DNA of 32,000 nt. It comes from Fastidiosibacter lacustris (GTDB taxonomy: Bacteria; Pseudomonadota; Gammaproteobacteria; Francisellales; Francisellaceae). The notes under the pieces are model-generated. The model was not told the DNA's origin, searched no databases, and was given only the letters and a program-made list of their open reading frames with translations. Shown in pieces: positions 11,923 through 32,000 of this stretch (position 1 is the stretch's first letter; each line of letters starts with the position of its first letter). A program made the position numbers and the translations under genes. The DNA is taken from NCBI RefSeq assembly GCF_003428155.1, contig NZ_QLIR01000018.1, forward strand, positions 1-32,000, written 5' to 3'.

Positions 11923-12064
11923 TTTTAAAAACGTTGTCAAAACAATTTGCGTGTAATCGAAAGTGTAGCAACTTTTGCTTAATAGAGAGGAGTAAAACTG
12001 CTTAACCATTTCAAGCAAGATGTGCATAATATTAAGCGTTTTAAATAAACAAACGAATTTAGTT

Positions 12065-13405: not shown

Positions 13406-13417
13406 TTGGAGTTGAGT

Positions 13418-14170
13418 ATGAGAAGACAAATTATTATTGGAAACTGGAAAATGAACGGTTCGTTGTTATCCATAAAAAGCTTGTGTGAATCATTAACTAA
13501 ACTCGCACATGAGTCAGACGTGGCAGATATTGCAGTGTGTGTGCCCAGCATTTATTTACCTTATGTGCAAACTAATCTTAAAAACATATGTTTGGGCGTA
13601 CAAAACGTAAGCCAATATAACAATGGTGCATATACGGGAGAAATTAGCACAACGATGTTACAAGACTTTAATTGTCGATATGTCATCGTCGGTCATTCTG
13701 AGCGCAGAGCATTTTTTGGAGAAACAGATGAAGATATTGCCAATAAGACCAAGCAAGTAGTGCAAGCAGGTTTAACGGCTATTGTTTGTGTTGGTGAAAC
13801 ATTGGAGGAGCGTACAACGGGTAATTTACAGTCAATTTTAGCCAGACAATTACAAGTCGTATTAAATAAATTATCGACAAAAGAGCTTGAAAAACTGATT
13901 ATTGCCTATGAACCTGTCTGGGCAATTGGCACGGGTTTAGCAGCAACAGCCCATCAAGTTCAAGATGTGCATCGCTATTTGCGCAAGATTGTCACAAACT
14001 TTGATGAAGAGCTTGCTAAAAACATCAAAATTATATATGGTGGCAGCCTAAAACCATCTAACGCAAGTGAACTACTAAGCTTGGAAGATGTAGATGGTGG
14101 GTTAATAGGTGGTGCTTCTTTGAACGGGAAGGACTTTGGTCAAATTATTAAGCAGGCAAAAAAAATATAA
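13418..14170 (+). CDS. tpiA: Triosephosphate isomerase
   Basis: Contains IIGNWKMNG, IVGHSERR, AYEPVWAIGTG and YGGS. I prefer ATG 13418, preceded by GGAG, over TTG 13406. The stop overlaps the secG start (TAATG). Confidence 0.95.
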   Translation: MRRQIIIGNWKMNGSLLSIKSLCESLTKLAHESDVADIAVCVPSIYLPYVQTNLKNICLGVQNVSQYNNGAYTGEISTTMLQDFNCRYVIVGHSERRAFFGETDEDIANKTKQVVQAGLTAIVCVGETLEERTTGNLQSILARQLQVVLNKLSTKELEKLIIAYEPVWAIGTGLAATAHQVQDVHRYLRKIVTNFDEELAKNIKIIYGGSLKPSNASELLSLEDVDGGLIGGASLNGKDFGQIIKQAKKI

Positions 14171-14640
14171 TGTTAGCATTGGTTATAACCATACATATAA
14201 TTGTTGCTGTTCTAATCGTAGGATTGATTTTATTACAGCAAGGCAAGGGCGCAACTATGGGAGCATCCTTTGGTTCAGGAGCATCACAAACTATTTTTGG
14301 AAGCAGAGGCGCGGCCCCTTTTATGTTTAAGCTTACTGCATTTTTAGTAGCAATTTTCTTTGTCACAAGTGTTGGTTTAAGCTATATTGGCAAACGTACA
14401 GCTGAGAATAGAGCATTGGCTGGTCAATCTTCAGCGGGTGTGACTCAAGCGGATTATCAAAAGCAGCAAGCTCAACAGCAAGCGCTCATTGACCAAGCAA
14501 AAGCAACAGTTGAGAAGCAAACTCCAAAACCTGATTCATTAAATATGAATGACTTATTGCAAACCTCAGCAGTTACTACTGATAAAACACCTAAAGATGC
14601 TACTTACAAAAAACCCTCAGAAAGTGAAAAACACCTGTAA
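14170..14640 (+). CDS. secG: Preprotein translocase subunit SecG, with a long hydrophilic C-terminal extension
   Basis: 156 aa. Two TM segments flank LLQQGKGATMGASFGSGASQTIFG. It is followed by tRNA-Leu, as in the E. coli secG-leuU arrangement. Confidence 0.85.
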   Translation: MLALVITIHIIVAVLIVGLILLQQGKGATMGASFGSGASQTIFGSRGAAPFMFKLTAFLVAIFFVTSVGLSYIGKRTAENRALAGQSSAGVTQADYQKQQAQQQALIDQAKATVEKQTPKPDSLNMNDLLQTSAVTTDKTPKDATYKKPSESEKHL

Positions 14641-14677
14641 AAGTTAAAGGTTCAGCTGCCTCGAAATAAGTTTTATT

Positions 14678-14763
14678 GCCAAAGTGGTGGAATTGGTAGA
14701 CACGCCATCTTGAGGGGGTGGTGAGTATCACTCGTGCGGGTTCGAGTCCCGCCTTTGGCACCA
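14678..14763 (+). tRNA. tRNA-Leu (anticodon GAG), class II with a long variable arm
   Basis: The sequence GCCAAAGTGGTGGAATTGGTAGACACGCCATCTTGAGGGGGTGGTGAGTATCACTCGTGCGGGTTCGAGTCCCGCCTTTGGCACCA has a GCCAAAG/CTTTGGC acceptor, a GCGGG/CCCGC T-stem, anticodon loop TTGAGGG and an encoded CCA. Confidence 0.9.
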
Positions 14764-14783
14764 AAAAATAAAAGGAAATAAGC

Positions 14784-15182
14784 ATGTTGCAATATAGTGT
14801 GTACCATGAGTTTTTACCGATTTTAATCTTTTTTATTATCGCCATATGTATTGCAATCGCAATGGCTGTAGGTGGTAAAGTTCTTTCCATTATCGTTGGA
14901 GTACATAAACCTAATCCGGAAAAAAATGCACCTTTTGAGTGTGGGTTCTCTGAGTTTGAAGATGCGCGCATCAAATTTGATGTGCGTTTTTATTTAGTGG
15001 CAATACTCTTCTTAGTCTTTGATTTAGAGGTCGCATTTATGATTCCATGGGGGGTGCTTGTCAGGGACAGTGCAGCAGGTGGCATATCTTGGGCTGCTTT
15101 TATTGCGATGATGGTTTTCTTATTTATCTTACTCGTAGGTTTTATCTATGAATGGAAAAAAGGAGCGCTAGAATGGGAGTAG
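14784..15182 (+). CDS. nuoA: NADH-quinone oxidoreductase subunit A
   Basis: 132 aa, three TM segments and the motif [12 protein letters not shown]. First gene of the nuo cluster. Confidence 0.9.
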
Positions 15183-15658
15183 AAGAAAACTTAAATAGTA
15201 ATAAAGGCTTTATTACTGCCAGTGCTGATTCTTTGGTTAACTGGGTGCGCACAGGTTCTTTGTGGCCAGTGACATTTGGTTTGGCTTGTTGTGCGGTTGA
15301 AATGATGCATTCAGGTGCATCGCGATATGATCTAGATCGTTTTGGTATTGTATTTCGTCCTAGTCCCCGTCAATCAGATGTGTTAATCGTTGCTGGCACC
15401 TTGTGTAATAAAATGGCACCCGCTTTACGTAAAGTATATGAGCAAATGCCAGACCCAAAATGGGTGATTTCGATGGGGTCGTGTGCTAATGGTGGTGGCT
15501 ATTACCATTATTCTTATTCTGTCGTTAGAGGTTGTGACCGTATTATGCCAGTTGATATTTATGTTCCTGGTTGTCCACCAACCGCGGAAGCACTTATTTA
15601 TGGTATTATTCAATTGCAAAATAAGATCAAACGAACCAATACGATTGCGAGGAAATAA
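15173..15658 (+). CDS. nuoB: NADH-quinone oxidoreductase subunit B
   Basis: The N2 cluster ligands are [20 protein letters not shown] and PGCPP. I prefer ATG 15173, with AGGAG 7 nt upstream, over 15152. Confidence 0.93.
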
Positions 15659-15660
15659 CG

Positions 15661-16329
15661 ATGTCCTTAACGCAGGAATTTATTGATGATTTAACAAAAG
15701 ACTTTGGTGGAAAGTTAGTCTCTATCACTTATGCTTATGGAGAATTTACTGCTGAGGTTCATAAATCAAACCTGATTAAGGTGATGACGCGTTTAAAGAA
15801 TATATTTAAGTTTGAACAATTAATCGATATATCAGGCGTGGATTATCTTTGTTATGGTGAAGATGAATGGAAAACAGAAAGTTCTACCAGTACTGGTTTT
15901 TCGCGTGGAATGGTAACAGGCGAGCTTTTACACAAAAAACTCAACAAAGGTAAAAAGCGTTTTGCAGTTGTGTATCATTTGATGAGTTTGGCGCTTAATA
16001 TTCGTCTACGTATTAAAGTATTTTTAGATGAACATGATTTGATGTTGCCCAGCGTAGTTGACATATGGTCTTCAGCAAATTGGAATGAGCGCGAGGCTTT
16101 TGACATGTTTGGTTTTGTTTTTATTGGTCATCCTGATTTGCGTCGTATTCTGACTGATTACGGCTTTGTGGGTTACCCCTTTAGAAAAGACTTTCCGCAA
16201 AGTGGCTATGTTGAGATGCGTTATGACGAAGTGCAAAAACGTGTGGTGTATGAACCCGTTGAAATTGATCCGCGTATCAACACACCAAAGGTTATCCGTC
16301 AAGATAATCGCTATTTAAATGAACAATAA
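15661..16329 (+). CDS. nuoC: NADH-quinone oxidoreductase subunit C (not fused to NuoD)
   Basis: 222 aa. Has the motif [16 protein letters not shown] and is positioned between nuoB and nuoD. Confidence 0.9.
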
Positions 16330-16341
16330 TTGAGCGTTGTT

Positions 16342-17595
16342 ATGGCAGAATTTAAAAACTATACAATGAACTTTGGTCCAGTGCATCCAGCCGCACATGG
16401 CGTGTTGCGTTTGGTTTTAGAACTAGACGGTGAAGTCGTTGTTCGCGCTGATCCACACATTGGTCTTTTACACCGTGGCACCGAGAAACTTGCAGAATCT
16501 AAACCATATAATCAAAGTATTGGCTATATGGATCGCTTAGACTATGTTTCAATGATGTGTAATGAGCATGCCTATGTATTGGCAATTGAAAAGCTTTTGG
16601 TTATTGAAGTGCCTAAACGTGCTCAATACATTCGAGTGATGTTTGCCGAGATTACGCGTATTTTAAATCACTTATTGTGGACGGCAGCAAATAGTCTTGA
16701 CTTAGGTGCAATGACGATGTTCTTATATGCGTTTCGTGAGCGTGAAGACTTGTTTGATTGCTATGAAGCAGTATCAGGAGCAAGAATGCATGCAACTTAC
16801 TTTCGCCCTGGCGGAGTGGTGCGTGATCTACCGTTGCAAATGCCAAAATATGAGAAATCTCGTTTTACTTCTAAACGTAAACTCAAAGCAATTAATAAAA
16901 ATCGCCAAGCTTCTCTCTTAGACTTTATTTGGGATTTTACGGAACGCTTTCCAAAATGTATTGATGAGTATGAAAATCTTTTAACCAATAATCGAATTTG
17001 GAAGCAGCGTACAGTTGGTATTGGGGTGGTTAGCGCTGAACGAGCAAAAGCATTAGGCTTTGGAGGCCCTATGCTTAGAGCTTCAGGTATCGCCTGGGAT
17101 TTGCGTAAAAAGCAACCATATGATGTTTATGATGAGGTGGAATTTGATATTCCGATTGGCAGTCATGGTGACTGCTATGATCGTTATTTAGTGCGCATGG
17201 CTGAGATGCGTGAATCAAATAAAATCATTCGTCAGTGTGTGAAATGGTTGCGTGAAAACGAAGGACCTGTAATGACGCCAAACCATAAGGTAACACCGCC
17301 TAAGCGTGACGAAATGAAAAACGGTATGGAAGCCTTGATTCACCATTTTAAACTGTTCTCCGAAGGCTATTGTGTGCCAGAAGGTGAAGTGTACGTAGGG
17401 ACAGAGCATCCGAAGGGTGAGTTTGGCATTTATTTAGTATCAGATGGTGCAAATAAACCCTATCGTGTCAAAATACGTGCACCAAGTTTTACTCATTTAA
17501 GTTCAATGAATGAAATGTTAAGTGGTCATATGTTGTCAGATGTACCAGCCATTATTGCCACGCAAGATATCGTATTTGGCGATGTAGATAGATAA
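16342..17595 (+). CDS. nuoD: NADH-quinone oxidoreductase subunit D
   Basis: Contains [15 protein letters not shown] and HRGTEKL. I prefer ATG 16342 over the TTG at 16330. Confidence 0.95.
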
Positions 17596-17608
17596 TTGGG
17601 ATTGCCAT

Positions 17609-18100
17609 ATGTTAGAAAAAAAACAAATTTTTCCAGGTCACATTACTGAGTTGCTAGAAAACTGGGAAAAACGTTACCCAAAAGATCAACAAAGATCGGT
17701 GATTATTCCAGGTTTGCATATATTGCAGGACCATAACAACGGCTATTTGACGATAGAGCTCATGGATAAATTGGCGCAATATTTGTCTGTTCCTGTAGCA
17801 CATGTTTATGAAGTGGCAACTTTCTACAGTATGTATGATTTACAAAAAGTAGGTCGGCATAAGCTTAATGTGTGCACAAATTTATCTTGTATGCTCAATG
17901 GTGCTAAAAAAATTATGACGCATATTGAAAATCGATTGGGCATCAAAGCAGGTGAAACAACGCCTGACGGGCGTATAACACTTAAGTCTGTTGAGTGCCA
18001 AGGTGCTTGCTGTGGTGCGCCCATGCTTGAAGTTGATAAGGTTTTTTATGAAAATCTAACGATCGGAAAAGTTGATCAATTACTAGATTCTTTGGAGTAG
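17609..18100 (+). CDS. nuoE: NADH-quinone oxidoreductase subunit E (2Fe-2S)
   Basis: 163 aa. The cysteine ligands lie in CTNLSCMLNG and CQGACCGAP. Confidence 0.93.
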   Translation: MLEKKQIFPGHITELLENWEKRYPKDQQRSVIIPGLHILQDHNNGYLTIELMDKLAQYLSVPVAHVYEVATFYSMYDLQKVGRHKLNVCTNLSCMLNGAKKIMTHIENRLGIKAGETTPDGRITLKSVECQGACCGAPMLEVDKVFYENLTIGKVDQLLDSLE

Positions 18101-18103
18101 CAA

Positions 18104-19375
18104 ATGGCGAATGAAGTTTGTTTTAGAACACTCCACCTTGAGCGACCTTGGTCGCTTAAATCATATGAGTCAGTTGGTGGTTACTCATATTGGAAGAAGA
18201 TTTTAGATGAGAAAATCCCACCTGAACAGATTATTGAAGAGCTCAAAAAATCTGGACTGCGTGGTCGCGGTGGAGCGGGTTTCCCTGCTGGACTTAAGTG
18301 GAGTTTTATGCCACGTAACTTACCAGGGCAAAAATATGTTGTTTGTAATTCAGATGAAGGAGAACCAGGTACGTGCAAAGATCGTGAAATCCTGCGCAAC
18401 AATCCCCATCAATTGATTGAAGGCATGGCAATTGCAGGTTATGCCACGGGTGCAAGTGTTGGTTACAATTATATTCGTGGTGAGTTTTATGAACCGATTG
18501 CACGTTTTGAAGCTGCACTCAATGAAGCAAGAGCGATGGGGTTAATTGGTTTTAACATAAGAAGCTCTGGGATTGATTTTAACCTTTATTGTTCCATTGG
18601 AGCAGGTGCCTATATTTGTGGTGAAGAAACTGCACTTTTAAACTCCTTAGAGGGTAAGAAAGGTCAGCCTCGATTTAAGCCACCATTTCCTGCGAATAAA
18701 GGCTTATATGGTTGTCCGACTAATATCAATAATACTGAAACCTATGCTTCAGTTCCACCGATTCTAGAACATGGTGGAGAGTGGTTTCAGAAACTCGGTA
18801 CTGAGAAAAGTGGTGGTACCAAGCTTTTTTGTGTATCAGGTCACGTTAATCAACCAGGGGTATTTGAGGTAGGCTTAGGTATTCCATTTAAAGACTTGTT
18901 GGCAATGGCAGGTGGTGTTCGTAGTGGTAAAAAGATTAAAGCAGTTATTCCAGGTGGAAGTTCCTGTAAAATTTTGACGGGTGAAGAAATGCTTGCACTG
19001 ACGATGGACTATGAAGCAATTGCTCAGGCAGGCTCTATGCTGGGATCAGGTGCGGTAGTCGTCTTAGATGAAGATACGTGCATGGTTGAGCTTCTAGCAC
19101 GGTTGGCCGATTTTTATTATGAAGAATCATGTGGTCAGTGTACCCCATGTAGAGAAGGGACAGGTTGGATGGCGCGTACACTTGAGCGAATATTGCACGG
19201 TGAAGGCAGATTAGAGGATATTAATAACTTGATTCGTGTGGCCTCCAATATTGAAGGAAATACGATTTGTGGTTTGGGTGATGCAGCAGCTTGGCCGGTC
19301 CAAAGTTACCTTAAGAAATTCAGACATGAATTTGAATATATGATTGAGAATAAACGTAGTATTGTCGCGGTTTAG
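18104..19375 (+). CDS. nuoF: NADH-quinone oxidoreductase subunit F (FMN/NADH site, 4Fe-4S)
   Basis: 423 aa. Has [16 protein letters not shown] and the cluster N3 motif [12 protein letters not shown]. Confidence 0.95.
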
Positions 19376-19413
19376 ATAATTTTGAGTAAGAAGAATTTAA
19401 AGTAAAGTTAAGG

Positions 19414-21825
19414 GTGAGTCCCGTGTCAGAAAAAGAAACACCAAAACAATTGAGCATTGAAATAAATGGTCAAAACTATCTAGCACATCCTGGTGAGATG
19501 GTCATTCAGGTGGCAGATAGGCATGGTATTTATATTCCACGTTTTTGCTATCATAAAAAGCTTTCAATTGCAGCAAATTGCAGAATGTGTTTAGTAGAAA
19601 TAGCAGGTGCCAGAAAGCCGTCTCCAGCATGTGCAACGCCAATCATGGATGGTATGAAAATATTCACAAAATCACCTACAACGATTGCATATCAGAAGAG
19701 CGTGATGGAGTTTCTGCTAATTAATCATCCATTGGATTGTCCGATTTGCGATCAAGGTGGTGAATGTGAACTGCAAGATATCGCAATGGGTTATGGTAGT
19801 GATGCTTCTAAGTATAGTGAAACCAAACGTGCCTTTGATGATCCAAGTTTAGGTCCATTGGTGGCAACCGATATGACGCGTTGTATTCAGTGTACGCGTT
19901 GTGTGCGATTTGGTGAGGAAATAGCAGGGGATAAGGAATTAGGTGCAATGGGGCGTAGCGATCACATGGAGATTAGCACTTATGTTGCAAAAACAGTCAA
20001 CTCTGAGTTATCAGGTAATATCATCGATCTGTGTCCAGTTGGTGCGTTGACCTCTAAACCATTTAGATTTAATGCTCGTGCATGGGAATTACTGCAGTAC
20101 TCAACGATTTCGGGTGCAGATGCAGTGGGTGCTAATATTTATGCGCATGTAAGACGCAATCAAATTATGCGTGTGATACCAAAAGAAAATGATGAATTAA
20201 ATGAAACTTGGCTTGCCGACAAAGATCGTTTTTATTATACAGGCGTTTATAGTGAAGATCGTGTGACTTCACCAATCATTAAGAAAAATGGACATTGGAT
20301 CGAAGTATCATGGGAAGAAGCGCTTGATTTTGTGAAGGTTGCAATTGAGCACACAAAAGAAAATGAAGGTGTTAATACCATTTCAGCCTTAGCATCTGAG
20401 TCAGCAACAACAGAAGAATTGTATCTATTGCAAAAGCTCATTCGTAAACTTGGTTCGAATAACATTGAAACACGCTTAAAACAAGGATCAAATGCTAAAA
20501 AATTACATACAGGAGTCGGTTTTGATTGCAGTTTTGCGGAGATTGAACAATCGGATGCAATTTTATTGCTTGGAAGTTACTTGCGCAAGGAAATCCCATT
20601 AATTAATCATCGCGTGCACAAAGCAGCAAAAAATGGTGCTAAGGTGTTAGCTATAAATAGCCAATATTACAGCTTTAATTATGAAATTCAAACCACATGT
20701 GTAGAAGCCAATGAATTCGTTTATGCTTTAGCAAGTTTGGTTAAAGCAATTGCCCAAAAGGTTGCTACCCCAATTCAGTCTGAAACTGTAAAATCAGTTA
20801 TTGATGCAATTGAGGTTTTCCCTGAAATTGAACACATTGCAGCTGAGCTTGGATGTTGTAAGAATCCTTTACTGATATTAGGTTTTGATGCTATTTTAAA
20901 TAAGGATTTTGCTGAAATTTATGCACTTTTCTTTGAGCTTAAACATTTACTTAATGCTAAAGGTGGTGTGTTGAGTATGGGGGCAAATAGCAAAGGCGCA
21001 CTTTTAGCAGGTGCCTCAGTAGATTACTCACCAGGTGGCGAAGAAAATCTGCAACATGGTTTAGCTCTACATGATATGTTGAGTAGTAAAACTAAGCTTA
21101 TGCTAAGCTTTGGCATTGAGCCTGAGTTAGATTGTATTGCTGGTAGTAAAGTGCTAAATGCATTAAAAGAGATTGATATCGTGGTTGCTTTCTCTGCTTA
21201 TGCTAATGAAGCCATGCGTGAATATGCTGATATTATTTTACCAATCACAACGCACTTTGAAACCGATGGTTCATTTGTGAATATTAATGGTCAAACCCAG
21301 CGCTTTAAAGCGGTAATATCTCCATATGAAGATAGTAAACCATTGTGGAAGGTACTGCGTGTATTAAGTAATTTATTAGCTATAGAAGGTTTTGATTACC
21401 AGACGTTAGATGAGGTTTATGCTGAGTATGCAGCCATTGAAAAAGTAGCACCTGTGCCGGTTATAGATGATTATTTAAAGAATGGATTGCCAAATTTGGC
21501 AGAAGGTTATTCGATTTTACCAACTGTTTCAATGTATAGTACATCAAGCACATTAAGGCGTGCGAAGCCATTGCAGAATACTCAAGATGCGATGTACTAT
21601 AAAGCGGTAAGGTTGTCAGCTAAGTTTGCTGTAGATAAAGGTATCGTTGACCAAACTGAAGTAAGCATTGGTATATCTGATCAATTTTACCAATTACCGA
21701 TTGTGATAGATGAAAATTTAGCTCAAAACACGATAGTAATTCCGTTCCAACTTCTGCCTCCTTGTAGTAAAAATTTAGCAAATGTTACAATTGCTGTAGT
21801 TAAAAATGAAGTGGTGGACATATGA
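19414..21825 (+). CDS. nuoG: NADH-quinone oxidoreductase subunit G
   Basis: 803 aa. Has [18 protein letters not shown] (N1b), [18 protein letters not shown] (N5) and [10 protein letters not shown] (N4). The start is uncertain: GTG 19414 or GTG 19423, and the latter has better spacing from AAGGG. Confidence 0.93.
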
Positions 21826-22835
21826 TTTTAGATATTATTTGGATCGTTTTGAAGATTTTATTGATAGTCATCCCATTGATACTTGTTGTTGCTTATTACA
21901 CTTATGCTGAACGTAAAGTGATCGGTTATATGCAGGATCGTATAGGTCCAAATAGAGTGGGTTCGTTTGGTCTTTTACAGCCAATTGTTGATGCAATTAA
22001 GCTTTTATTAAAAGAGATTATTATTCCTGCGAAATCAAACCGATATTTATTTTTTATTGCGCCGATGTTGGCTTTTGCTCCAGCTTATACTGCTTGGGCG
22101 GTTGTGCCATTTGGTCAAGGAGTTGTGTTAGCAAATATTAATGCAGGTGTGCTATATATTTTGGCGATGACTTCCATTGCAGTATATGGGGTGATTATTG
22201 CCGGCTGGGCTTCTAACTCGAAATATGCGATGTTTGGAGCATTACGTGCGGCAGCGCAAGTGGTCTCATATGAACTTGCAATGGGCTTTGCGATTATTGG
22301 TGTGCTGATTGCTGCTGGCTCCTTGAACCTAAGCACGATTGTCGAAACGCAAAAAGGGGGCTTTTGGCATTGGTATTTTATTCCACTTTTCCCGCTTTTC
22401 ATTATTTATTTTATTGCAGGAGTCGCTGAAACTGGGCGTGCGCCATTTGATGTGATTGAGGGGGAGTCTGAAATTGTAGCGGGTCACCATGTCGAATACT
22501 CAGGTGCACGCTTTGCGCTATTCTTCTTGGCAGAATATGCCAATATGATTTTGATCAGCTTATTAACAGCTGTTTTTTTCCTAGGCGGCTGGATGTCACC
22601 ATTTGAGCAGATTCCGGTGTTGGATAAATTCTTTAACTTTGTGCCGGGTATAATTTGGCTATTCTTAAAGACAGGGGTATTTATGTTTATGTATCTTTGG
22701 ATTCGTGCTACTTTTCCAAGATACCGTTATGATCAATTAATGCGTTTGGGTTGGAAGATTTTTATTCCAGTTACCCTAGTATGGGTAATTGTAGTTGCTT
22801 TCATGGTTAAACTTGGCTTAAGCCCTTGGTGGTAG
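21822..22835 (+). CDS. nuoH: NADH-quinone oxidoreductase subunit H
   Basis: 337 aa, polytopic. Has [20 protein letters not shown]. The ATGA overlaps the nuoG stop. Confidence 0.95.
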
Positions 22836-22851
22836 GAGAGGAGGTTTAGAT

Positions 22852-23343
22852 ATGTTTAAAACAATTAAACGTTATTGTCAGACTTTCTTGCTGTGGGAGT
22901 TAGTAAAAGGTCTTAAGATTACAGGTAAGCATCTTTTTACGCGCAAGGTAACCGTGCAATATCCTGATGAAAAAACACCACAATCAGGTCGTTTTCGTGG
23001 TTTACATGCTTTACGTCGTTATGAAAATGGTGAAGAGCGTTGTATTGCATGTAAATTGTGTGAAGTGGTATGTCCTGCTTTGGCAATTACAATAGAAGCA
23101 GCGCCGCGCAAAGATGGTTCAAGGCGCACCACAAAATATGAAATTGACTTATTTAAATGTATTTTTTGTGGCTTGTGCGAAGAATCTTGTCCTGTCGATT
23201 CTATTGTTGAAACACGTATATTTGAGTATCACTTTGAGAATCGTGGTGAAAATATCATGACAAAAGCAAAACTGTTGGCAATTGGAGATCAGTATGAACA
23301 GGAGATTGCCAGGGATCGTGAAGTGGACAAGGCATTTAGATAG
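22852..23343 (+). CDS. nuoI: NADH-quinone oxidoreductase subunit I (2x 4Fe-4S ferredoxin)
   Basis: 163 aa. Has [12 protein letters not shown] and [12 protein letters not shown]. Confidence 0.95.
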
Positions 23344-23351
23344 GAGCCAAG

Positions 23352-23954
23352 ATGAGCGTTAACATTATATTTTACGTTTTTGCAACCCTCACTGTTTTAG
23401 GTGCTTTGCTGGTGATTAGTGCTAAAAACCCAGTGCGAGCAGTGATTGCTAAGGTATTTACTTTCTTTGCAGCAGCGGGGGTGTGGTTAACTATGCAACA
23501 AGAATACTTGGCTTTACTTTTAATCGTTGTTTATGTCGGTGCGGTTTTGGTTATGTTCTTGTTTGTGGTGATGATGCTTGATATCGATATCATCATTAAG
23601 CAAAAAAAGCTTGTTTTCTATTGGCCGATTGTAATTGTGCTTTGTGTTTGTTTGGCTGTGTTGATTTCAATTGTGGCGACACATACGTTTAGCGGTAAAG
23701 TGCTCACAGGGGGATTAGGTACAGTTGAAAACCTAGGACGTGAGCTGTTTTCTGATAAATATCTCTATACTTTTGAGCTTGCAGGTATGATTTTGTTAGC
23801 TGCAATGGTTGCGGCTATCACGCTTACTTTCCGTGGTAAAAAACCAGGTAATAAATCTATGAACCCCGCATTACAAATCAAAACTCAGGCTAAAGATCGT
23901 TTGACAATGGTTAAAATGAAGTCTGAAAAGACTAATAAGGGAGAACCTAAATGA
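23352..23954 (+). CDS. nuoJ: NADH-quinone oxidoreductase subunit J
   Basis: 200 aa, hydrophobic. Has [17 protein letters not shown] and is in the expected operon position. Confidence 0.9.
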
Positions 23955-24268
23955 CAAGTATTCCTGTGCCCTTAACGCATTATCTTATTTTTAGTGCCAT
24001 TATTTTTTCACTGAGTGTTGCTGGTATTATCATCAATCGTCGTAACTTGTTGATCTTATTGATGTCAATAGAGTTAATGTTATTGGCGATAAATACGAAT
24101 TTTATTGCCTTTTCAAGTATGCTAAAGCAAAACACAGGTGAGGTGTTTGTATTCTTCATTTTAACTGTTGCAGCAGCAGAAGCAGCGATTGGTTTAGCGA
24201 TTGTTGTGGTGTTATTTAGAACACGTAAGACAATTGATGTTGGTCAACTTAATACACTAAAAGGTTAG
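23951..24268 (+). CDS. nuoK: NADH-quinone oxidoreductase subunit K
   Basis: 105 aa, three TM segments. Has [12 protein letters not shown] and [13 protein letters not shown]. The ATGA overlaps the nuoJ stop. Confidence 0.93.
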
Positions 24269-24272
24269 GTCA

Positions 24273-26282
24273 ATGGGTATTGATTTTATTATTGCTATCA
24301 TCATTTTGGCGCCAGCATTTGGTGCAATTGCGGCGGGCTTTTTTGCTAAGAAAGTCCAGCCTATTGGTGTGAATTGCATTACCATTGGCTTGGTTGGGTT
24401 GTCGTTTATTCTAAGTGTGGTCTTAGCTTTAGGCGTGTATCTAAATAATGCTGTTTATACAGCAACTTATTTTAACTGGGCTCTTTTTCCAAGTTTAGGC
24501 ATGAAAGTAAGCTTCACTGTCGATAGACTTTCTGCTTTTATGATGGTGATTGTGACTTTCGTATCAGCTTTAGTCCATATCTATTCAGTTGGTTATATGC
24601 GTGGTGAAGCAGGTTATGCGCGCTTCTTTGCTTACATTTCAGGCTTTACTTTTGCTATGTTGTGCTTAGTCATGGGTAATAACTTTTTATTACTTTTCTT
24701 TGGTTGGGAAGGTGTTGGTCTATTCTCGTATTTGCTTATTGGTTATTACTTTGATAAAGACTCAGCCAATGAGGCAAGTTTACGTGCATTTATTATTAAT
24801 CGGGTTGGTGACCTTGGCTTTTTATTAGGCATTGCTGCGGTCATTTACTACTGCAATTCCATTGATTATAGTACGGTGTTCACTACTATAGCCAATTTGG
24901 ATAATAACCAAGTGATTTCCTTTTTAGGCATGAAGTTTAGTCCAATTACCTTAATGTGCGTGCTGTTGTTTGTTGGTGCAATGGGTAAATCAGCTCAGTT
25001 TCCATTACATACCTGGTTAGAAGGCTCAATGGAGGGTCCAACACCAATTTCTGCTTTGATCCATGCTGCAACGATGGTAACAGCAGGGGTGTTTATGGTA
25101 GCGCGCTTATCTCCGATGTTTGTTCACTCGACAACGGCTTTAAGCTTTGTGATGATTATTGGCGCCATTACGTGTTTGTTTATGGGGTTGATTGCAATTG
25201 TGCAGATGGATATTAAGCGCGTTATTGCTTATTGTACATTATCTCAATTGGGTTATATGATGGTTGCTCAAGGCGCATCGGGTTTTTCAATCGGTATGTT
25301 CCATTTAATGACCCATGCGATGTTTAAAGCTTTACTATTTTTGGCAGCAGGTTCGGTGATTGTTGCGCTTCATCACGAGCAAGATATGCGTAAAATGGGT
25401 GGATTGCGGAAATACATGCCTATTACCTATATTTGTATGATCATTGGTGGTTGGGCGCTTGCAGCTATCCCTCCATTTGCAGGTTTTTTCTCAAAAGATT
25501 TAATCATTGAAACAGCAGAAATCACTACTTTACCTGGTCATGAATTTGCGTATTATTTAGTATTGGCATGTGCATTTGTTACTCCATTCTATACTTTTAG
25601 AATGATTTTTATGACTTTTCATGGTCAGCCAAGAATGGACGCGCATACTAAGGCACATATAAAGGAATCACCTTGGAGTATTTTGATTCCACTTATTTTG
25701 CTAGCCATTCCATCGATTTTTATGGGTATGTTGTTCTTTGAACTAGCGTTAACACCAAATACAGCTAATTCAGACGGGTTCTTTGGCAATACTATTGCGC
25801 AATATATGCAACCGCAATTAGGTAACATGACCGTAATTAGCGTATTGGCAGAAGAAGCAATAACGAAAACACCTTGGGACTACATTATGCACTCCCTGCA
25901 TACTGCTCCTTTTTGGTTAGCAGTCTTAGCTTTGATTCTAGCCTATATCTTTTATGTTTTGATGCCAAATATTCCAAAGACACTCGCCAACGTACGCTCA
26001 GGTATGGGTATTTTGCATTATGTGTTAGTAAAAAAATACTTTATTGATGAACTGTATGACTTGGTGTTTGTTAAAGGTACGAGGTTATTGAGTAAATTTT
26101 TATGGGTTGTCGTTGATATCTTTATGATCGATAAAATTGCTGTGCAAGGTAGTGCAAATTTAATTTATTTCACTGGTAAGAAACTGACCAAGGTTCAGCG
26201 TGGTTATTTGTTTGATTATGCGTTGGTGCTTTTGATCGGTGTATTGGCATTAATCACATGGCTTATTTTTTGGGTAAACTAG
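24273..26282 (+). CDS. nuoL: NADH-quinone oxidoreductase subunit L
   Basis: 669 aa, antiporter-like. Has WEGVGLFSYLLIGYYF and GPTPISALIHAATMVTAG. Confidence 0.95.
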   Translation: MGIDFIIAIIILAPAFGAIAAGFFAKKVQPIGVNCITIGLVGLSFILSVVLALGVYLNNAVYTATYFNWALFPSLGMKVSFTVDRLSAFMMVIVTFVSALVHIYSVGYMRGEAGYARFFAYISGFTFAMLCLVMGNNFLLLFFGWEGVGLFSYLLIGYYFDKDSANEASLRAFIINRVGDLGFLLGIAAVIYYCNSIDYSTVFTTIANLDNNQVISFLGMKFSPITLMCVLLFVGAMGKSAQFPLHTWLEGSMEGPTPISALIHAATMVTAGVFMVARLSPMFVHSTTALSFVMIIGAITCLFMGLIAIVQMDIKRVIAYCTLSQLGYMMVAQGASGFSIGMFHLMTHAMFKALLFLAAGSVIVALHHEQDMRKMGGLRKYMPITYICMIIGGWALAAIPPFAGFFSKDLIIETAEITTLPGHEFAYYLVLACAFVTPFYTFRMIFMTFHGQPRMDAHTKAHIKESPWSILIPLILLAIPSIFMGMLFFELALTPNTANSDGFFGNTIAQYMQPQLGNMTVISVLAEEAITKTPWDYIMHSLHTAPFWLAVLALILAYIFYVLMPNIPKTLANVRSGMGILHYVLVKKYFIDELYDLVFVKGTRLLSKFLWVVVDIFMIDKIAVQGSANLIYFTGKKLTKVQRGYLFDYALVLLIGVLALITWLIFWVN

Positions 26283-26306
26283 GGCATTTAGAGGAAAGTT
26301 AATATT

Positions 26307-27920
26307 ATGTTTATAACTCATTATTTACTGAGTTTACTAATTTGGGTGCCGGTTATTGGCGGCTTTATTGTGCTTGCGGCAAAATCTCCTGATGGCAAGA
26401 AAGAAGCAGCGCGTTGGACGGCACTGGCAGTGGCGGTGATAACGCTTCTATTGTGTATTCCTTTATATCTTGAGTTTGATCCAACCACTGCACAAATGCA
26501 GTTTGTTGAGCGTGTACGTTGGTTTAGTTTGTTTGCTAATAAAGATGCCGTTTATTACTATCTTGGTGTAGACGGTTTTTCTGTATTGTTTATTATTTTG
26601 ACAAGTTTCACCAACCTTGTAATTGTGCTGGCGGCTTGGCATAGTATCAAGGTGCGTTTAAGACAGTACATGGCGATCTTTTTGATTACAACAGGCTTAA
26701 CCAATGCTGTTTTTATGGCACAGGATACTATGCTTTTCTATATTTTCTGGGAAGCATTATTAATTCCAACAACTCTGGGTATTGGTATTTGGGGCGGTAA
26801 GAAAAAGGCCTATGCAGCTCTTAAATACTTTTTGTATACCTTTGCAGGTTCTATCTTCTTATTGCTTGCGTTTTTATACATACAACGACAAGTAGCCGCT
26901 TTGCCCACTAGCTCACTTGTGGATAGTGGCACGTTCTCGATCCAAAACTTTATCTTCTGGGCAACGGAAGTTAATAACATAGGGCAATTGATCAATATTA
27001 CGCTAACGACGCAATTGCTATTGTTCGGTGCATTTTTCTTGGCTTTTGCCGTTAAAATACCGATGTGGCCGTTTCATTCATGGTTACCAGATGCGCATTC
27101 AGAAGCACCCGCGGGTGGTTCGGTTGTTTTGGCTGCTTTGATGTTAAAGCTAGGTGCATATGGTTTCCTACGCTTTGTGTTGCCTCTGATTCCAGCAGTT
27201 ACTGCTATGTTGGATTGGTTTTTAATTGTTATGTCCCTCATTGCTATTGTATACGTTGGGATTGTTGCAATTGCTCAAACTGATTTTAAACGCTTAATTG
27301 CTTACTCATCCATCTCACATATGGGATTAGTGACATTGGCAATGTTTTCGATCTTTCTTTTAGTAAAAAATAATCCAGATCACATGCTTGGAATGGCGGA
27401 TGCGCAGTTTGCCATTCAAGGTGCGGTGTTTCAGATGATTGCTCACGCTTTTTCGTCAGGTGGAATGTTTATTGGTTGTGGTTATTTATATTTACGGATG
27501 CAAACACGTAATATTGCTGATTTTCAAGGTGTTGCCCGTTCAATGCCAATATTTGCGACTTTTTTTATGTTATTTTGTTTAGCAAACGTCGGACTCCCAG
27601 GCACAAGTGGTTTTGTCGGTGAGTTTTTAATTATTTTAGCTGTGTTTAAATATTCTCCTTGGGTGGCACTGTTAGCAGGATTGACACTTATCATTGCACC
27701 TGCTTATACGCTTTGGATGTATAAGAGGGTGTTCTTTGGTAAAGTAGTAACCACACAAGTGGCGACACTTAAAGATATTTCTGGACTTGAGATTTTTGTG
27801 CTTGTGTTGTTGGCAATACCAACGATTTTGTTTGGTGTTTATCCTGAGCCGATTTTACAACTTTCTTCTGCGGCTTCAACGCATATCATCCAAGCTGCAC
27901 ATGCGATAACGATAGGATAA
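26307..27920 (+). CDS. nuoM: NADH-quinone oxidoreductase subunit M
   Basis: 537 aa, antiporter-like. Has HSWLPDAHSEAPAGGSVVLAALMLKLG. Confidence 0.95.
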   Translation: MFITHYLLSLLIWVPVIGGFIVLAAKSPDGKKEAARWTALAVAVITLLLCIPLYLEFDPTTAQMQFVERVRWFSLFANKDAVYYYLGVDGFSVLFIILTSFTNLVIVLAAWHSIKVRLRQYMAIFLITTGLTNAVFMAQDTMLFYIFWEALLIPTTLGIGIWGGKKKAYAALKYFLYTFAGSIFLLLAFLYIQRQVAALPTSSLVDSGTFSIQNFIFWATEVNNIGQLINITLTTQLLLFGAFFLAFAVKIPMWPFHSWLPDAHSEAPAGGSVVLAALMLKLGAYGFLRFVLPLIPAVTAMLDWFLIVMSLIAIVYVGIVAIAQTDFKRLIAYSSISHMGLVTLAMFSIFLLVKNNPDHMLGMADAQFAIQGAVFQMIAHAFSSGGMFIGCGYLYLRMQTRNIADFQGVARSMPIFATFFMLFCLANVGLPGTSGFVGEFLIILAVFKYSPWVALLAGLTLIIAPAYTLWMYKRVFFGKVVTTQVATLKDISGLEIFVLVLLAIPTILFGVYPEPILQLSSAASTHIIQAAHAITIG

Positions 27921-27928
27921 GATTAAAT

Positions 27929-29371
27929 ATGATGTTAGCAAATATTATCACTGTATTACCTGAAATTACCTTGAGTATTGGCGCACTTGTAGTGATGTTA
28001 TCTGACTTGTTTTGGGGCAAGAGAGTTAAGAATATCGCCTATATTTTGACTCAGTTATTTTTAATTATTGCGTCTTGGATTTTATTGAAGTCTTTGTTAA
28101 GCCACGTCCATGTCGGTTTTGAAGGGCAAACTCTATCCAACGAACTAACTTTTGTATTGCAAGAAGTTATTGTGTTAGTTGCGTTTTTCGTGTTTATCTA
28201 TTGTAAAGAATACATAGAAGATAGGCAGTTACCGCAAGGTGAGTTTTATGTGTTAGCACTTTTGTCTATTTTGGGGGCGCTGGTGTTAACTTCAGCACAT
28301 AGTTTATTAACTATTTACATTGGATTAGAGCTTTTATCTTTACCGCTTTATGCACTTCTTGCGATTCGCCGCGGATTTGCTAAAGGTGCTGAAGCAGCAA
28401 TTAAATACTTTGTATTAGGAGCGATAGCATCAGGCTTGTTATTATATGGAATGTCGTTTATCTATGGTATTACTGGCAGTCTGGATTTAACTGAAATTGG
28501 TAAATACCTTACCAATCCAACAGCTGCACATATGGATATCGTGTTAATCGCTATGGTATTAATGATTACAACGGCTACTTTTAAGCTTGGAGCTGTGCCT
28601 TTTCATATGTGGGTACCAGATGTTTATGAAGGCTCACCTAATGCAGTGACTGCTTTTTTAGCGTCAGTACCAAAAGTTGCCGCTTTTGCAATGCTTGTTA
28701 ATATTCTAATGATTGCAATGCCAGCACAATCCTTTGCCTGGACAAAAGTATTAATGGTATTGGCAGTGATTTCGATCTTCTTTGGTAACTTGATGGCGCT
28801 AGCCCAGAAGAACCTTAAGCGTTTATTAGGTTATTCCACGATTTCGCACGTCGGATTTGTGTTGTTAGCGCTTATTTTGAATCCCACTGCTTTTGCGGTA
28901 TCAACTGCATTATTTTATGTTATCATCTATGTACTTATGTCAGCAGCAGCTTTTGGTGTACTTATCGTATTGAGTGTTAAAGGTAATGATGTTGAAAACC
29001 TAGGTGACTTTGCAGGACTGAACCGTCGTAATCCGTGGATTGCCTTTCTAATGTTGATCGTCATGTTTTCAATGGCAGGTATTCCACCGTTATCAGGTTT
29101 TACAGCTAAGCTTTTTGTGATTATGGGCTTGGTTGATACAGGGCATCTAGGTTTGGCTATTTATGCACTTATCATGTCTGTCATTGCTGCATATTATTAT
29201 TTACGTGTTATTAAAGTGATGTACTTTGAGTTACCTAAAAACCAGACCCCTGTTTATGCCAATAAAGTTACTTTGTTTGGCTTGAGTATTAACACCGGAC
29301 TGATTTTACTATTAGGGGTATTCCCAGCACTTCTTGTTACACTTATTACACCAATTTATATGCTGTTTTGA
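27929..29371 (+). CDS. nuoN: NADH-quinone oxidoreductase subunit N
   Basis: 480 aa, antiporter-like. Has FHMWVPDVYEGSPNAVTAFL. Last gene of the operon. Confidence 0.95.
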   Translation: MMLANIITVLPEITLSIGALVVMLSDLFWGKRVKNIAYILTQLFLIIASWILLKSLLSHVHVGFEGQTLSNELTFVLQEVIVLVAFFVFIYCKEYIEDRQLPQGEFYVLALLSILGALVLTSAHSLLTIYIGLELLSLPLYALLAIRRGFAKGAEAAIKYFVLGAIASGLLLYGMSFIYGITGSLDLTEIGKYLTNPTAAHMDIVLIAMVLMITTATFKLGAVPFHMWVPDVYEGSPNAVTAFLASVPKVAAFAMLVNILMIAMPAQSFAWTKVLMVLAVISIFFGNLMALAQKNLKRLLGYSTISHVGFVLLALILNPTAFAVSTALFYVIIYVLMSAAAFGVLIVLSVKGNDVENLGDFAGLNRRNPWIAFLMLIVMFSMAGIPPLSGFTAKLFVIMGLVDTGHLGLAIYALIMSVIAAYYYLRVIKVMYFELPKNQTPVYANKVTLFGLSINTGLILLLGVFPALLVTLITPIYMLF

Positions 29372-29400
29372 TTTTTATTATTAGGAGTATTTCTAGCACT
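29301..29400 (+). repeat. Imperfect direct repeat: nuoN codons about 458-468 (29301-29331) are duplicated immediately after the nuoN stop (29369-29400)
   Basis: Copy 1 is TGATTTTACTATTAGGGGTATTCCCAGCACT. Copy 2 is TGATTTTTATTATTAGGAGTATTTCTAGCACT. About 26-27 of 32 aligned positions are identical, and copy 2 begins with the nuoN TGA stop itself. Confidence 0.7.
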
Positions 29401-29585
29401 ATAGAGTCCTAACTTTCTATCTTAACTTTACTTTAAGTTGTTTCAGTAATTACCAGTGATGTATAGTCATTCTAATAAATATTCACATTATCCAATCTAT
29501 ATTTCAAAATGGTTATCATAAGATATAGGATAGATTTGACACTTAGAAATTTAAAATGTTAGATGTGGTCTGTGGAGCGCTTACA

Positions 29586-31301
29586 TTAAGCCAACCAAAA
29601 GAAAATTACTATGGCTATACAGATCGTAATGAAAAAGAAAATCTTAGTAGAATTGTCATCAATATTTTTTCTTTCCAATGGTTTATTTACTGAGCTTTTA
29701 GTATTTAATTTAGATAATGAATTATGAGAATTGTTAGAACTGAAAGGTGATTTCTGACCAAAATGAGTATTACGGTTTCCATTATTTTTAATAGTAGATT
29801 GACTAACAGTTTGTGGTTTATTTATTGTGTTTTTCATCGATTTTATATCATTTAATAAACTAATGTTTTTATTTGATTGTTGTGGAAATGAAGTAATCTT
29901 ACTTATTGTTTTATCATGATTTTTAATATGCTTTAAATCATCTAAAATACCTTTATTATTATCCTTAATATTAGGAATTACAGCTTTAGTTTTATTTAAT
30001 CGAAACTTTGCATCTTGTTCATTCATAATAAATAGCTGGTTAATATTTTTAAGCTCCATTTGTATTTGATTAGGTGCGCTTTTATGAGTTAAGAACATCC
30101 CACTAACACTTATCCATTTTGAAACTAAGTTATCTAAACTACCAACTCTTTTAATATCATTAGGTGTACAATTCCATACTACTATTTTTATCATTTTTTT
30201 TCCTTTAGAATAGGAGCTAAAATTTAAAAAAACGTATGGTTGATTAATTGTTGTCGTGCCTGATTTGTAGTTATGTATTTTCCCAATTAATTCTACTTTA
30301 GTTCCAATCAAAGAATATGCTAGATTATAATCGGTAGCATCAACCACTGGAAATGCTGCAATATAATTCTTTTCACTAAATGGAGTTAATGAATGATTGC
30401 TAGTAGGAATGTTGCAACCATTTAAAAAATCGCTAAGAGTTGGTATTGATAGATAAGAGCTTTTGCAGATAGACATAAACCATTTAGCTTTATCCTCTAA
30501 CTCATTTATTCTTAAAATACTATTGAAAATTTTAGAAGATTCTGGATCTCTAAAATCATTAGCCTTAAATACAATTGCATCACCTGAAGCACTTTCATTC
30601 CATATATCAGGTCTTTTTTGTAACACGTCTATTGCTAGAGAAAGTGATATAAATGAGAATCTATCAAGTTTGTTATCATAAGGGTTTATTTTTTCTCTTT
30701 CTGGATGTTGAAAGTTTCGCTGCCCAAGTTCAGCACTACCTAAATTTTTTATACCTTCAAAAAACATTCCATCATAATCTATTAATTTCACAGAGTAGTC
30801 AGAACTATTCACAATAAGATTATCAATTTGAATATCTCCATGTGCTATATTATTTTTTTCTAAAAATATATTTAAACCCAATAATGATTGATTAAGTTTT
30901 ATTAAAGCACTTGGATTATTTAGATTGTTCTCAATAAATTCACCAAGGGTTTCTCCATTAGCCCAATCCATTTTTATAATTGGGTATTTTTTCCCTTTTA
31001 CTAATATGCCATTAGCTATAAAATCAAAATTAAGAAAATAATTTGAATTTAGTTTGTTAATATTTTTAGATATTTCCGCATAACGTGCTTCAAGTGATTT
31101 CGATTCTTTATGAAAGCAGCGAATTGCATATTTTTTGTGATTATATTGAGCTATGTATGTTAATGCAAATCCACCACATAATGCTAATGGAACTCCTAAT
31201 CCAGTTTTTTTGAAAATAGCATATTTAAGCTCATGATCACTAAAACATCCTTTAGGATTTTGTAATGCTTCTTGGTAATTTTCAAGGCTTGGATAAGGCA
31301 T
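29586..31301 (-). CDS. Multidomain protein: N-terminal atypical (eukaryotic-like/APH-RIO-type) protein kinase fold, OB-fold-like beta domain, Asn/Ser/Lys-rich linker and a C-terminal transmembrane tail anchor
   Basis: 571 aa. The Gly-rich loop region is GLGVPLALCGGFALTY, followed by the beta3-like YAIRCF. The catalytic loop is AHGDIQIDN (HGDxxxxN) and the metal-binding region is KLIDYDGMF (DxDG). Residues about 330-425 alternate beta-like segments (KVELIGKIHNY, PYVFLNFS, IKIVVWN, WISVSGMFLTH, QIQMELKNINQLFIM). Residues about 440-550 are low complexity. The last 19 aa, IFFFITICIAIVIFFWLA, are hydrophobic. The gene is clearly more AT-rich than its neighbours. Confidence 0.6.
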   Translation of the reverse strand: MPYPSLENYQEALQNPKGCFSDHELKYAIFKKTGLGVPLALCGGFALTYIAQYNHKKYAIRCFHKESKSLEARYAEISKNINKLNSNYFLNFDFIANGILVKGKKYPIIKMDWANGETLGEFIENNLNNPSALIKLNQSLLGLNIFLEKNNIAHGDIQIDNLIVNSSDYSVKLIDYDGMFFEGIKNLGSAELGQRNFQHPEREKINPYDNKLDRFSFISLSLAIDVLQKRPDIWNESASGDAIVFKANDFRDPESSKIFNSILRINELEDKAKWFMSICKSSYLSIPTLSDFLNGCNIPTSNHSLTPFSEKNYIAAFPVVDATDYNLAYSLIGTKVELIGKIHNYKSGTTTINQPYVFLNFSSYSKGKKMIKIVVWNCTPNDIKRVGSLDNLVSKWISVSGMFLTHKSAPNQIQMELKNINQLFIMNEQDAKFRLNKTKAVIPNIKDNNKGILDDLKHIKNHDKTISKITSFPQQSNKNISLLNDIKSMKNTINKPQTVSQSTIKNNGNRNTHFGQKSPFSSNNSHNSLSKLNTKSSVNKPLERKNIDDNSTKIFFFITICIAIVIFFWLA

Positions 31302-31309
31302 AAGTAATC

Positions 31310-32000
31310 CTAAAGTTTAAGACTAATTAAAGTTGTATCATCTAGTCTAATGGAGTTATTTTTTCTATTATGCTCTATTAAATTCAAAAAGCTTTCTGTA
31401 TCTTCTATTTCTAAAAGTTGACTCCATTCAGATGTATTATTTCTTTCATACATTTTTAAAAACCATTCACCTAAAGCATCAGACATAACTAAAATATGTG
31501 GAAATTCAAAATGCTGTAAGTCCCATACTCCTGTGTTAATTTCACTAATAACGTCATCATTACTAAAACTGTCATATTTACTTTCAGATGCTAACAATAA
31601 AGGTCGATGAGAGAACTCACAAGATTCAAGATAATGAAAAGTATTAATTTTCACATTGCCATCAAAAAGGATAGCTATACAATCGCCAATAGATAATAAT
31701 TCAACTTTCTTTTTATCTTCATCAAAAGTAAGACCTAGTAAAGTTGAAAAACTACCCCGGCTATATGATGCTAATTTAGACCAACTAAAGTCAGATTTAT
31801 CAAATTGAATAGAATAATTAAATCTGGCTTTTTCAAGCCATTCGGCATTGATGCATTCTGATTCAATATACTGATTAGCCAATACAGTTGCCCATTCTTT
31901 TGCCGCAAATGATTCACTGGCACCATCGCATAGTACAACCTTTTTATTGTCATAATTTATACAGAACACATCTTCATTACTTGAAAATTCAGTGGATTCT
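31310..32000 (-). CDS. PP2C-like Ser/Thr phosphatase (resembles the PP2C_2 type), 5-prime end outside the window
   Basis: The frame stays open to position 31999 (..ESTEFSSNEDVFCINYDNKKVVLCDGASES..). PP2C-type motifs occur in order: NEDVF, LCDGASES, LLSIGDCIAILF, ILVMSDALGEW and the C-terminal LDDTTLISLKL. The stop TAG lies 8 nt before the kinase ATG and overlaps an AGGA Shine-Dalgarno. Confidence 0.6.
   Translation of the reverse strand, partial: ESTEFSSNEDVFCINYDNKKVVLCDGASESFAAKEWATVLANQYIESECINAEWLEKARFNYSIQFDKSDFSWSKLASYSRGSFSTLLGLTFDEDKKKVELLSIGDCIAILFDGNVKINTFHYLESCEFSHRPLLLASESKYDSFSNDDVISEINTGVWDLQHFEFPHILVMSDALGEWFLKMYERNNTSEWSQLLEIEDTESFLNLIEHNRKNNSIRLDDTTLISLKL

Follow-up and report, generated by a model that had tools for sequence, protein, structure and literature searches.

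Position and gene content of the islet

The window analysed here is a stretch of 32,000 nucleotides of Fastidiosibacter lacustris DNA (positions 1 to 32,000 of contig NZ_QLIR01000018.1). At its right-hand end, directly downstream of the nuo operon and convergent with it, lie two reverse-strand genes: one encodes a PP2C-type protein phosphatase, the other a protein kinase joined to an OB fold and a predicted C-terminal membrane anchor (Table 1). From 29466 to beyond 32000 the window very probably contains a horizontally acquired anti-phage cassette of the TerY-P type, of which the 3′ two-thirds are visible. TerY-P is a system of three components: TerY, PP2C and the Ser/Thr kinase with OB fold (STK-OB).

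Table 1. Features of the window around the islet, and the content of the corresponding site in relatives (positions in relatives refer to the locus named)
Sequence	Feature	Position	Strand	Basis or remark
Window	nuoN	27929–29371	+	last gene of the nuoA-N operon (14784–29371), native core; 100% match to Fastidiosibacter lacustris NuoN
Window	native nuoN 3′ flank, 94 nt	29372–29465	+	common to sibling L085
Window	foreign AT-rich islet	29466–32000	−	right end beyond window; composition and sibling divergence
Window	STK_OB kinase gene, 571 amino acids	29586–31301	−	stop codon 29586–29588; PADLOC PDLC02223, Pfam Pkinase
Window	protein-kinase domain (predicted), about residues 1–300	30402–31301	−	AlphaFold, Foldseek, hhalign
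Window	OB-fold domain (predicted), about residues 318–435	29997–30350	−	separate domain model, Foldseek
Window	Asn/Ser/Lys-rich low-complexity linker, residues 436–547	29661–29996	−	predicted disordered
Window	C-terminal hydrophobic tail anchor (predicted), residues 548–571	29589–29660	−	helix model, Kyte-Doolittle
Window	spacer between phosphatase and kinase, 8 nt	31302–31309	−	between TAG 31310–31312 and kinase ATG 31299–31301
Window	PP2C-type phosphatase gene	31310–32000 (past window end)	−	PADLOC PDLC02222; N-terminal 11–15 codons beyond window
Cysteiniphilum litorale (L086, GCA_052059965.1)	type I restriction-modification cluster directly after nuoN	11571–19390		HsdR, HsdS, DUF1016, AAA_13, HsdM
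Cysteiniphilum sp. 19S12-1 (L087)	after nuoN: OmpA-like gene, HTH gene, pyrG			
Metagenomic relative (L088)	after nuoN: fumarase			
Fangia hongkongensis (L090)	after nuoN: unknown 395-amino-acid gene and permease			

The region that follows nuoN differs sharply in composition from the remainder of the window. GC content is 0.283 for 29372–32000 versus 0.387 for 1–29371, which places it about ten standard deviations under the mean of windows of the same size slid across 1–29371 (268 windows of 2629 nt; range 0.363–0.414, standard deviation 0.011). GC content at third codon positions (GC3) is 0.170 in the kinase gene and 0.192 in the phosphatase gene, the lowest values in the window; the other 28 long open reading frames (ORFs) range from 0.27 to 0.37. 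The coding strand changes at the same point, nuoN being read forward and the two ORFs after it in reverse. Both changes had been described in the first-pass annotation, a reading made from the letters of the sequence, and both are confirmed.

A sibling assembly (GCA_024208055.1, locus L085) defines the left boundary. Its sequence is 99.84% identical to the window from 17929 to 29465 and diverges completely from 29466; because the two are near-identical up to this point and unrelated after it, foreign DNA begins at 29465/29466. The islet proposed in the first-pass annotation is therefore real, but its left edge is not at 29372, where that annotation had placed it: the 94 nt that follow the stop codon of nuoN are native and are shared with the sibling, in which the equivalent of nuoN carries the Pfam domain Proton_antipo_M. 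Past the breakpoint the sibling contig continues for 340 nt (11538–11877; GC 0.326) that hold no ORF and have no match among the sequences fetched for comparison, and then ends.

The site was also inspected in more distant relatives. NuoN proteins are found at 90%, 89%, 83% and 78% identity, versus 49% for the nearest homologue of the kinase, and the kinase/phosphatase pair follows nuoN in none of the four loci L086, L087, L088 and L090. Deviant composition thus coincides with a difference in presence and absence among close relatives, as is usual for genomic islands. Two outcomes had been named beforehand as arguments against foreign origin: that GC content and codon usage would not deviate, and that the pair would be conserved at this position with native composition. 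Neither holds, given a GC content some ten standard deviations from the mean, GC3 values of 0.17–0.19, a sibling that diverges and relatives that have no such pair. The region after nuoN is consequently an accessory, horizontally acquired, strain-specific islet.

No tRNA was found near the islet, no integrase was seen at its visible (left) end and no convincing terminal or flanking repeats were detected there. A scan for promoters and terminators returned nothing above shuffled expectation, and RNA folding of both 3′ flanks (including 29372–29465) was no better than that of shuffled sequences. The tRNA genes seen elsewhere in the window lie away from the islet border: a tRNA-Leu(GAG) at 14678–14763 (+) directly precedes nuoA, and tRNA-Glu and tRNA-Ala genes form a pair at 1286–1459 (−), near the left end. 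An insertion boundary that is precise to the nucleotide between two near-identical strains should be useful for understanding how small defence cassettes move when no integrase is obvious.

Within the islet the two genes are co-directional and tightly spaced, phosphatase first. On the reverse strand the junction reads TAG-GATTACTT-ATG, so that 8 nt separate stop from start, and the Shine-Dalgarno sequence AGGA is made up of the last two bases of the phosphatase stop codon (AG) and the GA that follows. This is the arrangement given in the first-pass annotation, and direct reading of the sequence agrees with it in every detail. The phosphatase and kinase genes are translationally coupled.

The kinase and phosphatase proteins

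The 571-residue protein matches the PADLOC model STK_OB (PDLC02223) at 7.2e-176, with residues 1–525 aligned to positions 1–523 of a 562-position profile. Against Pfam the match to Pkinase is weak (2.7e-8, 34 bits); NCBIfam has no dedicated model for either islet protein. The kinase occurs as a single entry, on one contig, in a collection of 5.8 billion proteins; this entry is an identical NCBI protein of Fastidiosibacter lacustris, and the next homologue is the one at 49% identity mentioned above.

An AlphaFold model of the protein, built with 24 homologues, has a block confidence (pLDDT, the predicted local distance difference test) that exceeds 80 for most of residues 1–435, with dips near 31–50, 171–210 and 301–310. 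When the kinase domain of this model was compared with structures in the Protein Data Bank (PDB) by Foldseek, the top matches listed were all protein kinases: PRPF4B, ASK1, WNK1 and PknB, with E values from 4e-9 to 1e-7. Alignment of profiles with hhalign likewise pairs the domain with PknB (probability 95%), laying HGD-x-Q-x-x-N on HRD...N, IDYDG on DFG and FQHPE on SPE. The motifs themselves are H154-G-D156-x-Q-x-x-N161, I-D175-Y-D177-G and FQHPE: judged from these residues, the catalytic loop and the metal-binding Asp appear to be intact.

The exception is the β3 strand. Where canonical kinases have AxK, the protein reads A59-I-R61 (31119–31127 of the window, reverse strand), and Arg occupies this site in 118 of 120 homologues. 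A substitution of this kind usually weakens canonical kinases, and for this reason we treat kinase activity as a prediction from sequence. The combination of a β3 Arg with intact catalytic motifs in the C-lobe suggests a non-canonical arrangement for binding ATP that is common to the whole family. The same substitution explains why the N-terminus looked unlike the canonical Hanks type in the first-pass annotation; the anomaly is genuine, but it belongs to the family and is no peculiarity of this locus.

Modelled separately, residues 305–440 form a domain (pLDDT 84.6) whose Foldseek matches in the PDB are nucleic-acid-binding OB folds: the anticodon-binding OB fold of aspartyl-tRNA synthetase (AspRS), Teb1 OB-A, MCM10 with single-stranded DNA (ssDNA), RPA, PriB and SSB (E values 9e-5 to 7e-3). 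The modelled OB fold is of the nucleic-acid-binding type. The linker beyond it has pLDDT values below 50 at residues 438–478 and 490–547 and is poorly conserved in the alignment of homologues (A1). It leads to a helix at residues 548–570, KIFFFITICIAIVIFFWLA, with a Kyte-Doolittle value of 2.97 and a block pLDDT of 80–89. The description of the kinase as membrane-anchored is thus a fair one, provided that the anchor is understood to be a predicted C-terminal tail.

This C-terminus is not the usual one for the family. Most homologues end instead in a CFI-box-CTERM module (NCBIfam NF041770), for which our searches returned a name and no function; the model matches, for example, residues 536–603 of homologue P0103, and has no match in the window kinase or in its nearest relative (P0002). 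A plain hydrophobic tail takes the place of the module in at least 15 of the top 120 homologues, the nearest relative included. The alternation suggests that CFI-box-CTERM and hydrophobic tail can stand in for each other functionally, as modules for membrane attachment or localisation.

The upstream protein matches the PADLOC PP2C model (PDLC02222) at 4.3e-69, over positions 16–238 of 242. Because the match starts at position 16, about 11–15 N-terminal residues are expected to lie past the window end, in agreement with the alignment of the phosphatase family (A2); up to that edge the ORF is intact. Pfam returned no match for this protein, and its PP2C_2 model matches 12 of 23 members of the family. 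In A2 the PP2C motifs NED, DGAS, GD, (T/S)DA and DD are invariant or nearly so, and a profile made from the alignment reaches the structures 6ihl and 5f1m (PP2C phosphatases of the Staphylococcus Stp1 type) with an E value of 0.004. All the acidic motifs that bind metal in PP2C enzymes are kept, to judge from the aligned residues, and the label PP2C-like, given to the protein before any search was made, is upheld. Profile and structure searches recover both a kinase fold and PP2C matches, although a failure to find them had been foreseen as one way in which the initial reading could fall.

Gene order in the family and assignment to TerY-P

Gene order was determined in relatives drawn from a scan of GTDB species representatives, in which at least 534 relatives were confirmed among the 600 pattern matches listed; 80 loci were kept. 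In 64 of them the gene immediately upstream of the kinase encodes a PP2C homologue. In 63 of these 64 the PP2C gene is itself preceded by an ORF of ∼277 amino acids, and the exception (L058) ends at a contig edge. Five of the ∼277-residue ORFs were sampled: all match the PADLOC model for TerY (PDLC02224) at 1e-172 to 2e-100, with weak matches to Pfam VWA. The nearest relative of the kinase (P0002, locus L081) stands in a locus with the order TerY-PP2C-STK and spacers of 5 nt. Clustering of the ORFs that flank the 63 triads revealed no other family common to more than five loci, which argues that the triad is a self-contained, mobile cassette.

Several features of these loci bear on the way in which the cassette moves. 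TerY-P cassettes are 5–11 percentage points lower in GC content than their flanks in several unrelated hosts (8437–11710 of L081, L001, L025, L074 and others), which is consistent with repeated recent transfer; over 55 loci the mean difference between cassette and flank is −1.6 points, the cassette being lower in 31. A phage collection contained no match to the kinase. Its relatives on plasmids number only two, both cyanobacterial and with 32–34% identity (Calothrix and Acaryochloris; AP025019.1 157994–159193 and NZ_AP026079.1 46347–47348). Together the lack of phage matches and the scarcity and distance of plasmid matches suggest that the cassette travels mainly in chromosomal islets.

A different architecture occurs in 12 of the loci (L057, L065, L066, L069, L071–L073, L075–L077, L079 and L080). 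Here the same kinase module, near position 10001 in most, is part of much longer proteins of about 800–1200 amino acids that have neither a PP2C nor a TerY neighbour.

The gene order of the family leads us to predict a 277-amino-acid TerY gene directly upstream of the phosphatase, at roughly 32040–32880 of the source contig. The contig is 33,427 bp long and so extends up to 1.4 kb beyond position 32000. Both visible proteins match component models of the OB branch of TerY-P (PDLC02222 and PDLC02223) at full length, and they share with that branch the order of domains (kinase, then OB fold), the order of genes (PP2C to STK on one strand), the tight spacing and the catalytic motifs. The locus differs from other members: its kinase is at most 49% identical to any known member and ends in a hydrophobic tail rather than the CFI-box-CTERM of most, and the islet is very AT-rich, more so than its host. 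No other member was found in those relatives from Fastidiosibacter and Francisella that were examined. The locus belongs to the described OB-fold branch of TerY-P and is not a new kind of system. Of the candidates named in the first-pass annotation the TerY-phosphorylation triad was thus the right one, as the full-length STK_OB and PP2C matches and the ORF of TerY size upstream in 63 of 64 loci attest; the suggestion of an uncharacterised variant is not sustained, since modules that join kinase and OB fold have already been described, and tested as stand-alone defence (PMC11090510 and PMC7699616, both citing Gao et al. 2020).

Some of the evidence weighs against this assignment. The window breaks off within the phosphatase gene, so that TerY is predicted and is not among the genes read. 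When the closest TerY at hand served as the query of a search, no Fastidiosibacter protein appeared among the best 120 of over 7,500 matches at nearly equal distance. The replacement of the β3 Lys by Arg runs through the entire kinase family. The anti-phage role ascribed to this locus derives from literature about homologues, and no description of the trigger or substrates of TerY-P was found in the literature accessible to our search.

The first two of these points invite a different reading, namely that the locus is a two-gene kinase/phosphatase switch devoid of TerY, either as a degenerate remnant or as a distinct subtype whose kinase is tail-anchored and has no CFI box. Only two genes are visible, and the window kinase shares the lack of CFI-box-CTERM with its nearest relative. 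That relative, tail-anchored like the window kinase, nevertheless has TerY directly upstream; an ORF occupies the TerY position in all 63 loci in which the region upstream of PP2C could be read; and the phosphatase ORF runs intact to the window edge, with up to 1.4 kb of contig beyond it. A variant without TerY is conceivable only because the window ends where it does, and the synteny of the family makes it improbable.

Less probable still is the view that the genes serve housekeeping signalling, as a pair of the PknB/PstP type, or respond to tellurite or metal stress as a TerY-P module not concerned with phage. The latter was the original proposal of Anantharaman et al. (2012), who, as summarised in PMC11090510, envisaged a phosphorylation switch that senses metal and is linked to ter genes; the vWA/MIDAS domain does bind metal. 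The pair is, however, absent from this site in the 99.8%-identical sibling, and no close homologue was found elsewhere; ter genes are missing from the window and none is conserved beside the 63 triads; and members of the kinase-OB branch have been shown to act against phage (10.1101/2022.08.12.503731, PMC7699616 and PMC11090510).

Hanks-type pairs (PknB/PstP and Stk1/Stp1) were compared with the locus as well. The kinase fold, the HxD...N loop, the D-x-G and (S/A)PE motifs and the alignment of the phosphatase profile to Stp1 are held in common, whereas the islet kinase has Arg at β3, carries an OB fold as well as an anchor at its C-terminus, lacks PASTA domains and is accessory rather than core.

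The idea that the kinase is a secreted eukaryote-like effector with its cognate phosphatase, as in amoeba-associated gammaproteobacteria, accords with a host in the Francisella-related Fastidiosibacteraceae, a eukaryote-like kinase fold and the foreign composition of the islet, but is scarcely credible in the face of a PADLOC model for a defence system that is matched at full length, of homologues that occur in free-living Proteobacteria by the hundred (Beta-, Gamma- and Alphaproteobacteria) and there always in the TerY-PP2C-STK cassette, of a putative transmembrane tail and a nucleic-acid-type OB fold that would suit a resident sensor, and of a window that holds no adjacent secretion-system genes. 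Translocation had been raised as an alternative in the first-pass annotation; a family that occurs in free-living Proteobacteria as a three-gene cassette lends it no support.

Two other triads resemble TerY-P of the OB branch in composition. The yegL-yegK-yegI genes of Escherichia coli K-12, to which the pair had initially been likened, also combine a vWA protein (YegL), a PP2C-like phosphatase (PphC, or YegK) and an atypical Ser/Thr kinase (YegI); in RefSeq pphC is the protein-serine/threonine phosphatase PphC and yegI the putative serine/threonine-protein kinase YegI. Membership of the same sequence family was rejected: BLASTP gave E values of 0.08 for the best segment of the kinase domain and 6.9 for the phosphatase, and YegL, PphC and YegI had no matches to the PADLOC STK_OB, PP2C and TerY models. 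Only the architecture is shared, and even this differs in that YegJ lies between the kinase and phosphatase genes and the signature of the OB-fold branch is missing.

The second triad is found in CoCoNuT systems (Type II/III-A, related to McrBC), where vWA, PP2C and STK components, the kinase carrying a zinc ribbon, are embedded in a larger cnuHE operon (PMC11090510). The logic of the triad is the same, but the islet kinase carries an OB fold, and homologous triads stand alone, with no conserved flanking genes. In its visible part the locus has neither the zinc-ribbon kinase nor the cnuHE/McrBC operon of the CoCoNuT type.

With the assignment to TerY-P of the OB branch, a cassette of this kind is placed in a Francisella-related lineage. 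The genes deserve to be annotated as components of TerY-P defence in place of the generic 'protein kinase domain-containing protein'.

A possible mechanism and the site downstream of nuoN

What is known of TerY-P function comes from homologues. T7-like phages are the target against which TerY-P gives protection according to PMC7699616, and modules in which kinase and OB fold are fused are stand-alone defence systems according to PMC11090510 (both papers cite Gao et al. 2020). In Pseudomonas aeruginosa only Autographiviridae are restricted by TerY-P; the system protects whether the multiplicity of infection is low or high, and most cells survive (10.1101/2022.08.12.503731).

From these phenotypes and from the architecture described above a mechanism may be proposed. 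A tail-anchored kinase would be held silent at the membrane by the PP2C phosphatase translated with it. When T7-like podophages infect the cell, a ligand of phage origin would shift the balance toward phosphorylation; the most likely ligand would be nucleic acid, perhaps single-stranded, bound by the OB fold, or else a protein or metal signal received through the vWA/MIDAS domain of TerY. Phosphorylation of TerY, of host targets and/or of phage targets would then block phage development and leave the cell alive. Trigger, substrates and the part played by TerY are the conjectural elements of this scheme. Since the P. aeruginosa system protects at low and high multiplicity of infection alike and most cells survive, direct interference with the phage appears a better description than abortive suicide.

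The presence of a type I restriction-modification cluster at the same site in Cysteiniphilum litorale raises the possibility that the region downstream of nuoN is a hotspot for defence genes. A bolder proposal has two parts, and we advance it as a whole only as a speculation that is doubtful on present evidence: first, that the site is a recurrent defence hotspot of the Fastidiosibacteraceae, occupied by TerY-P here, by restriction-modification and AAA_13 genes in C. litorale and by something else in the sibling; and second, that a TerY-P with a tail-anchored kinase, a β3 Arg and no CFI box is a mechanistically distinct sensor of phage nucleic acid, acting close to the membrane and binding ATP in a non-canonical manner. 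The compact tail-anchored variant, in which the β3 Arg is invariant and the OB fold resembles those that bind ssDNA or RNA, is a reasonable object for biochemistry.

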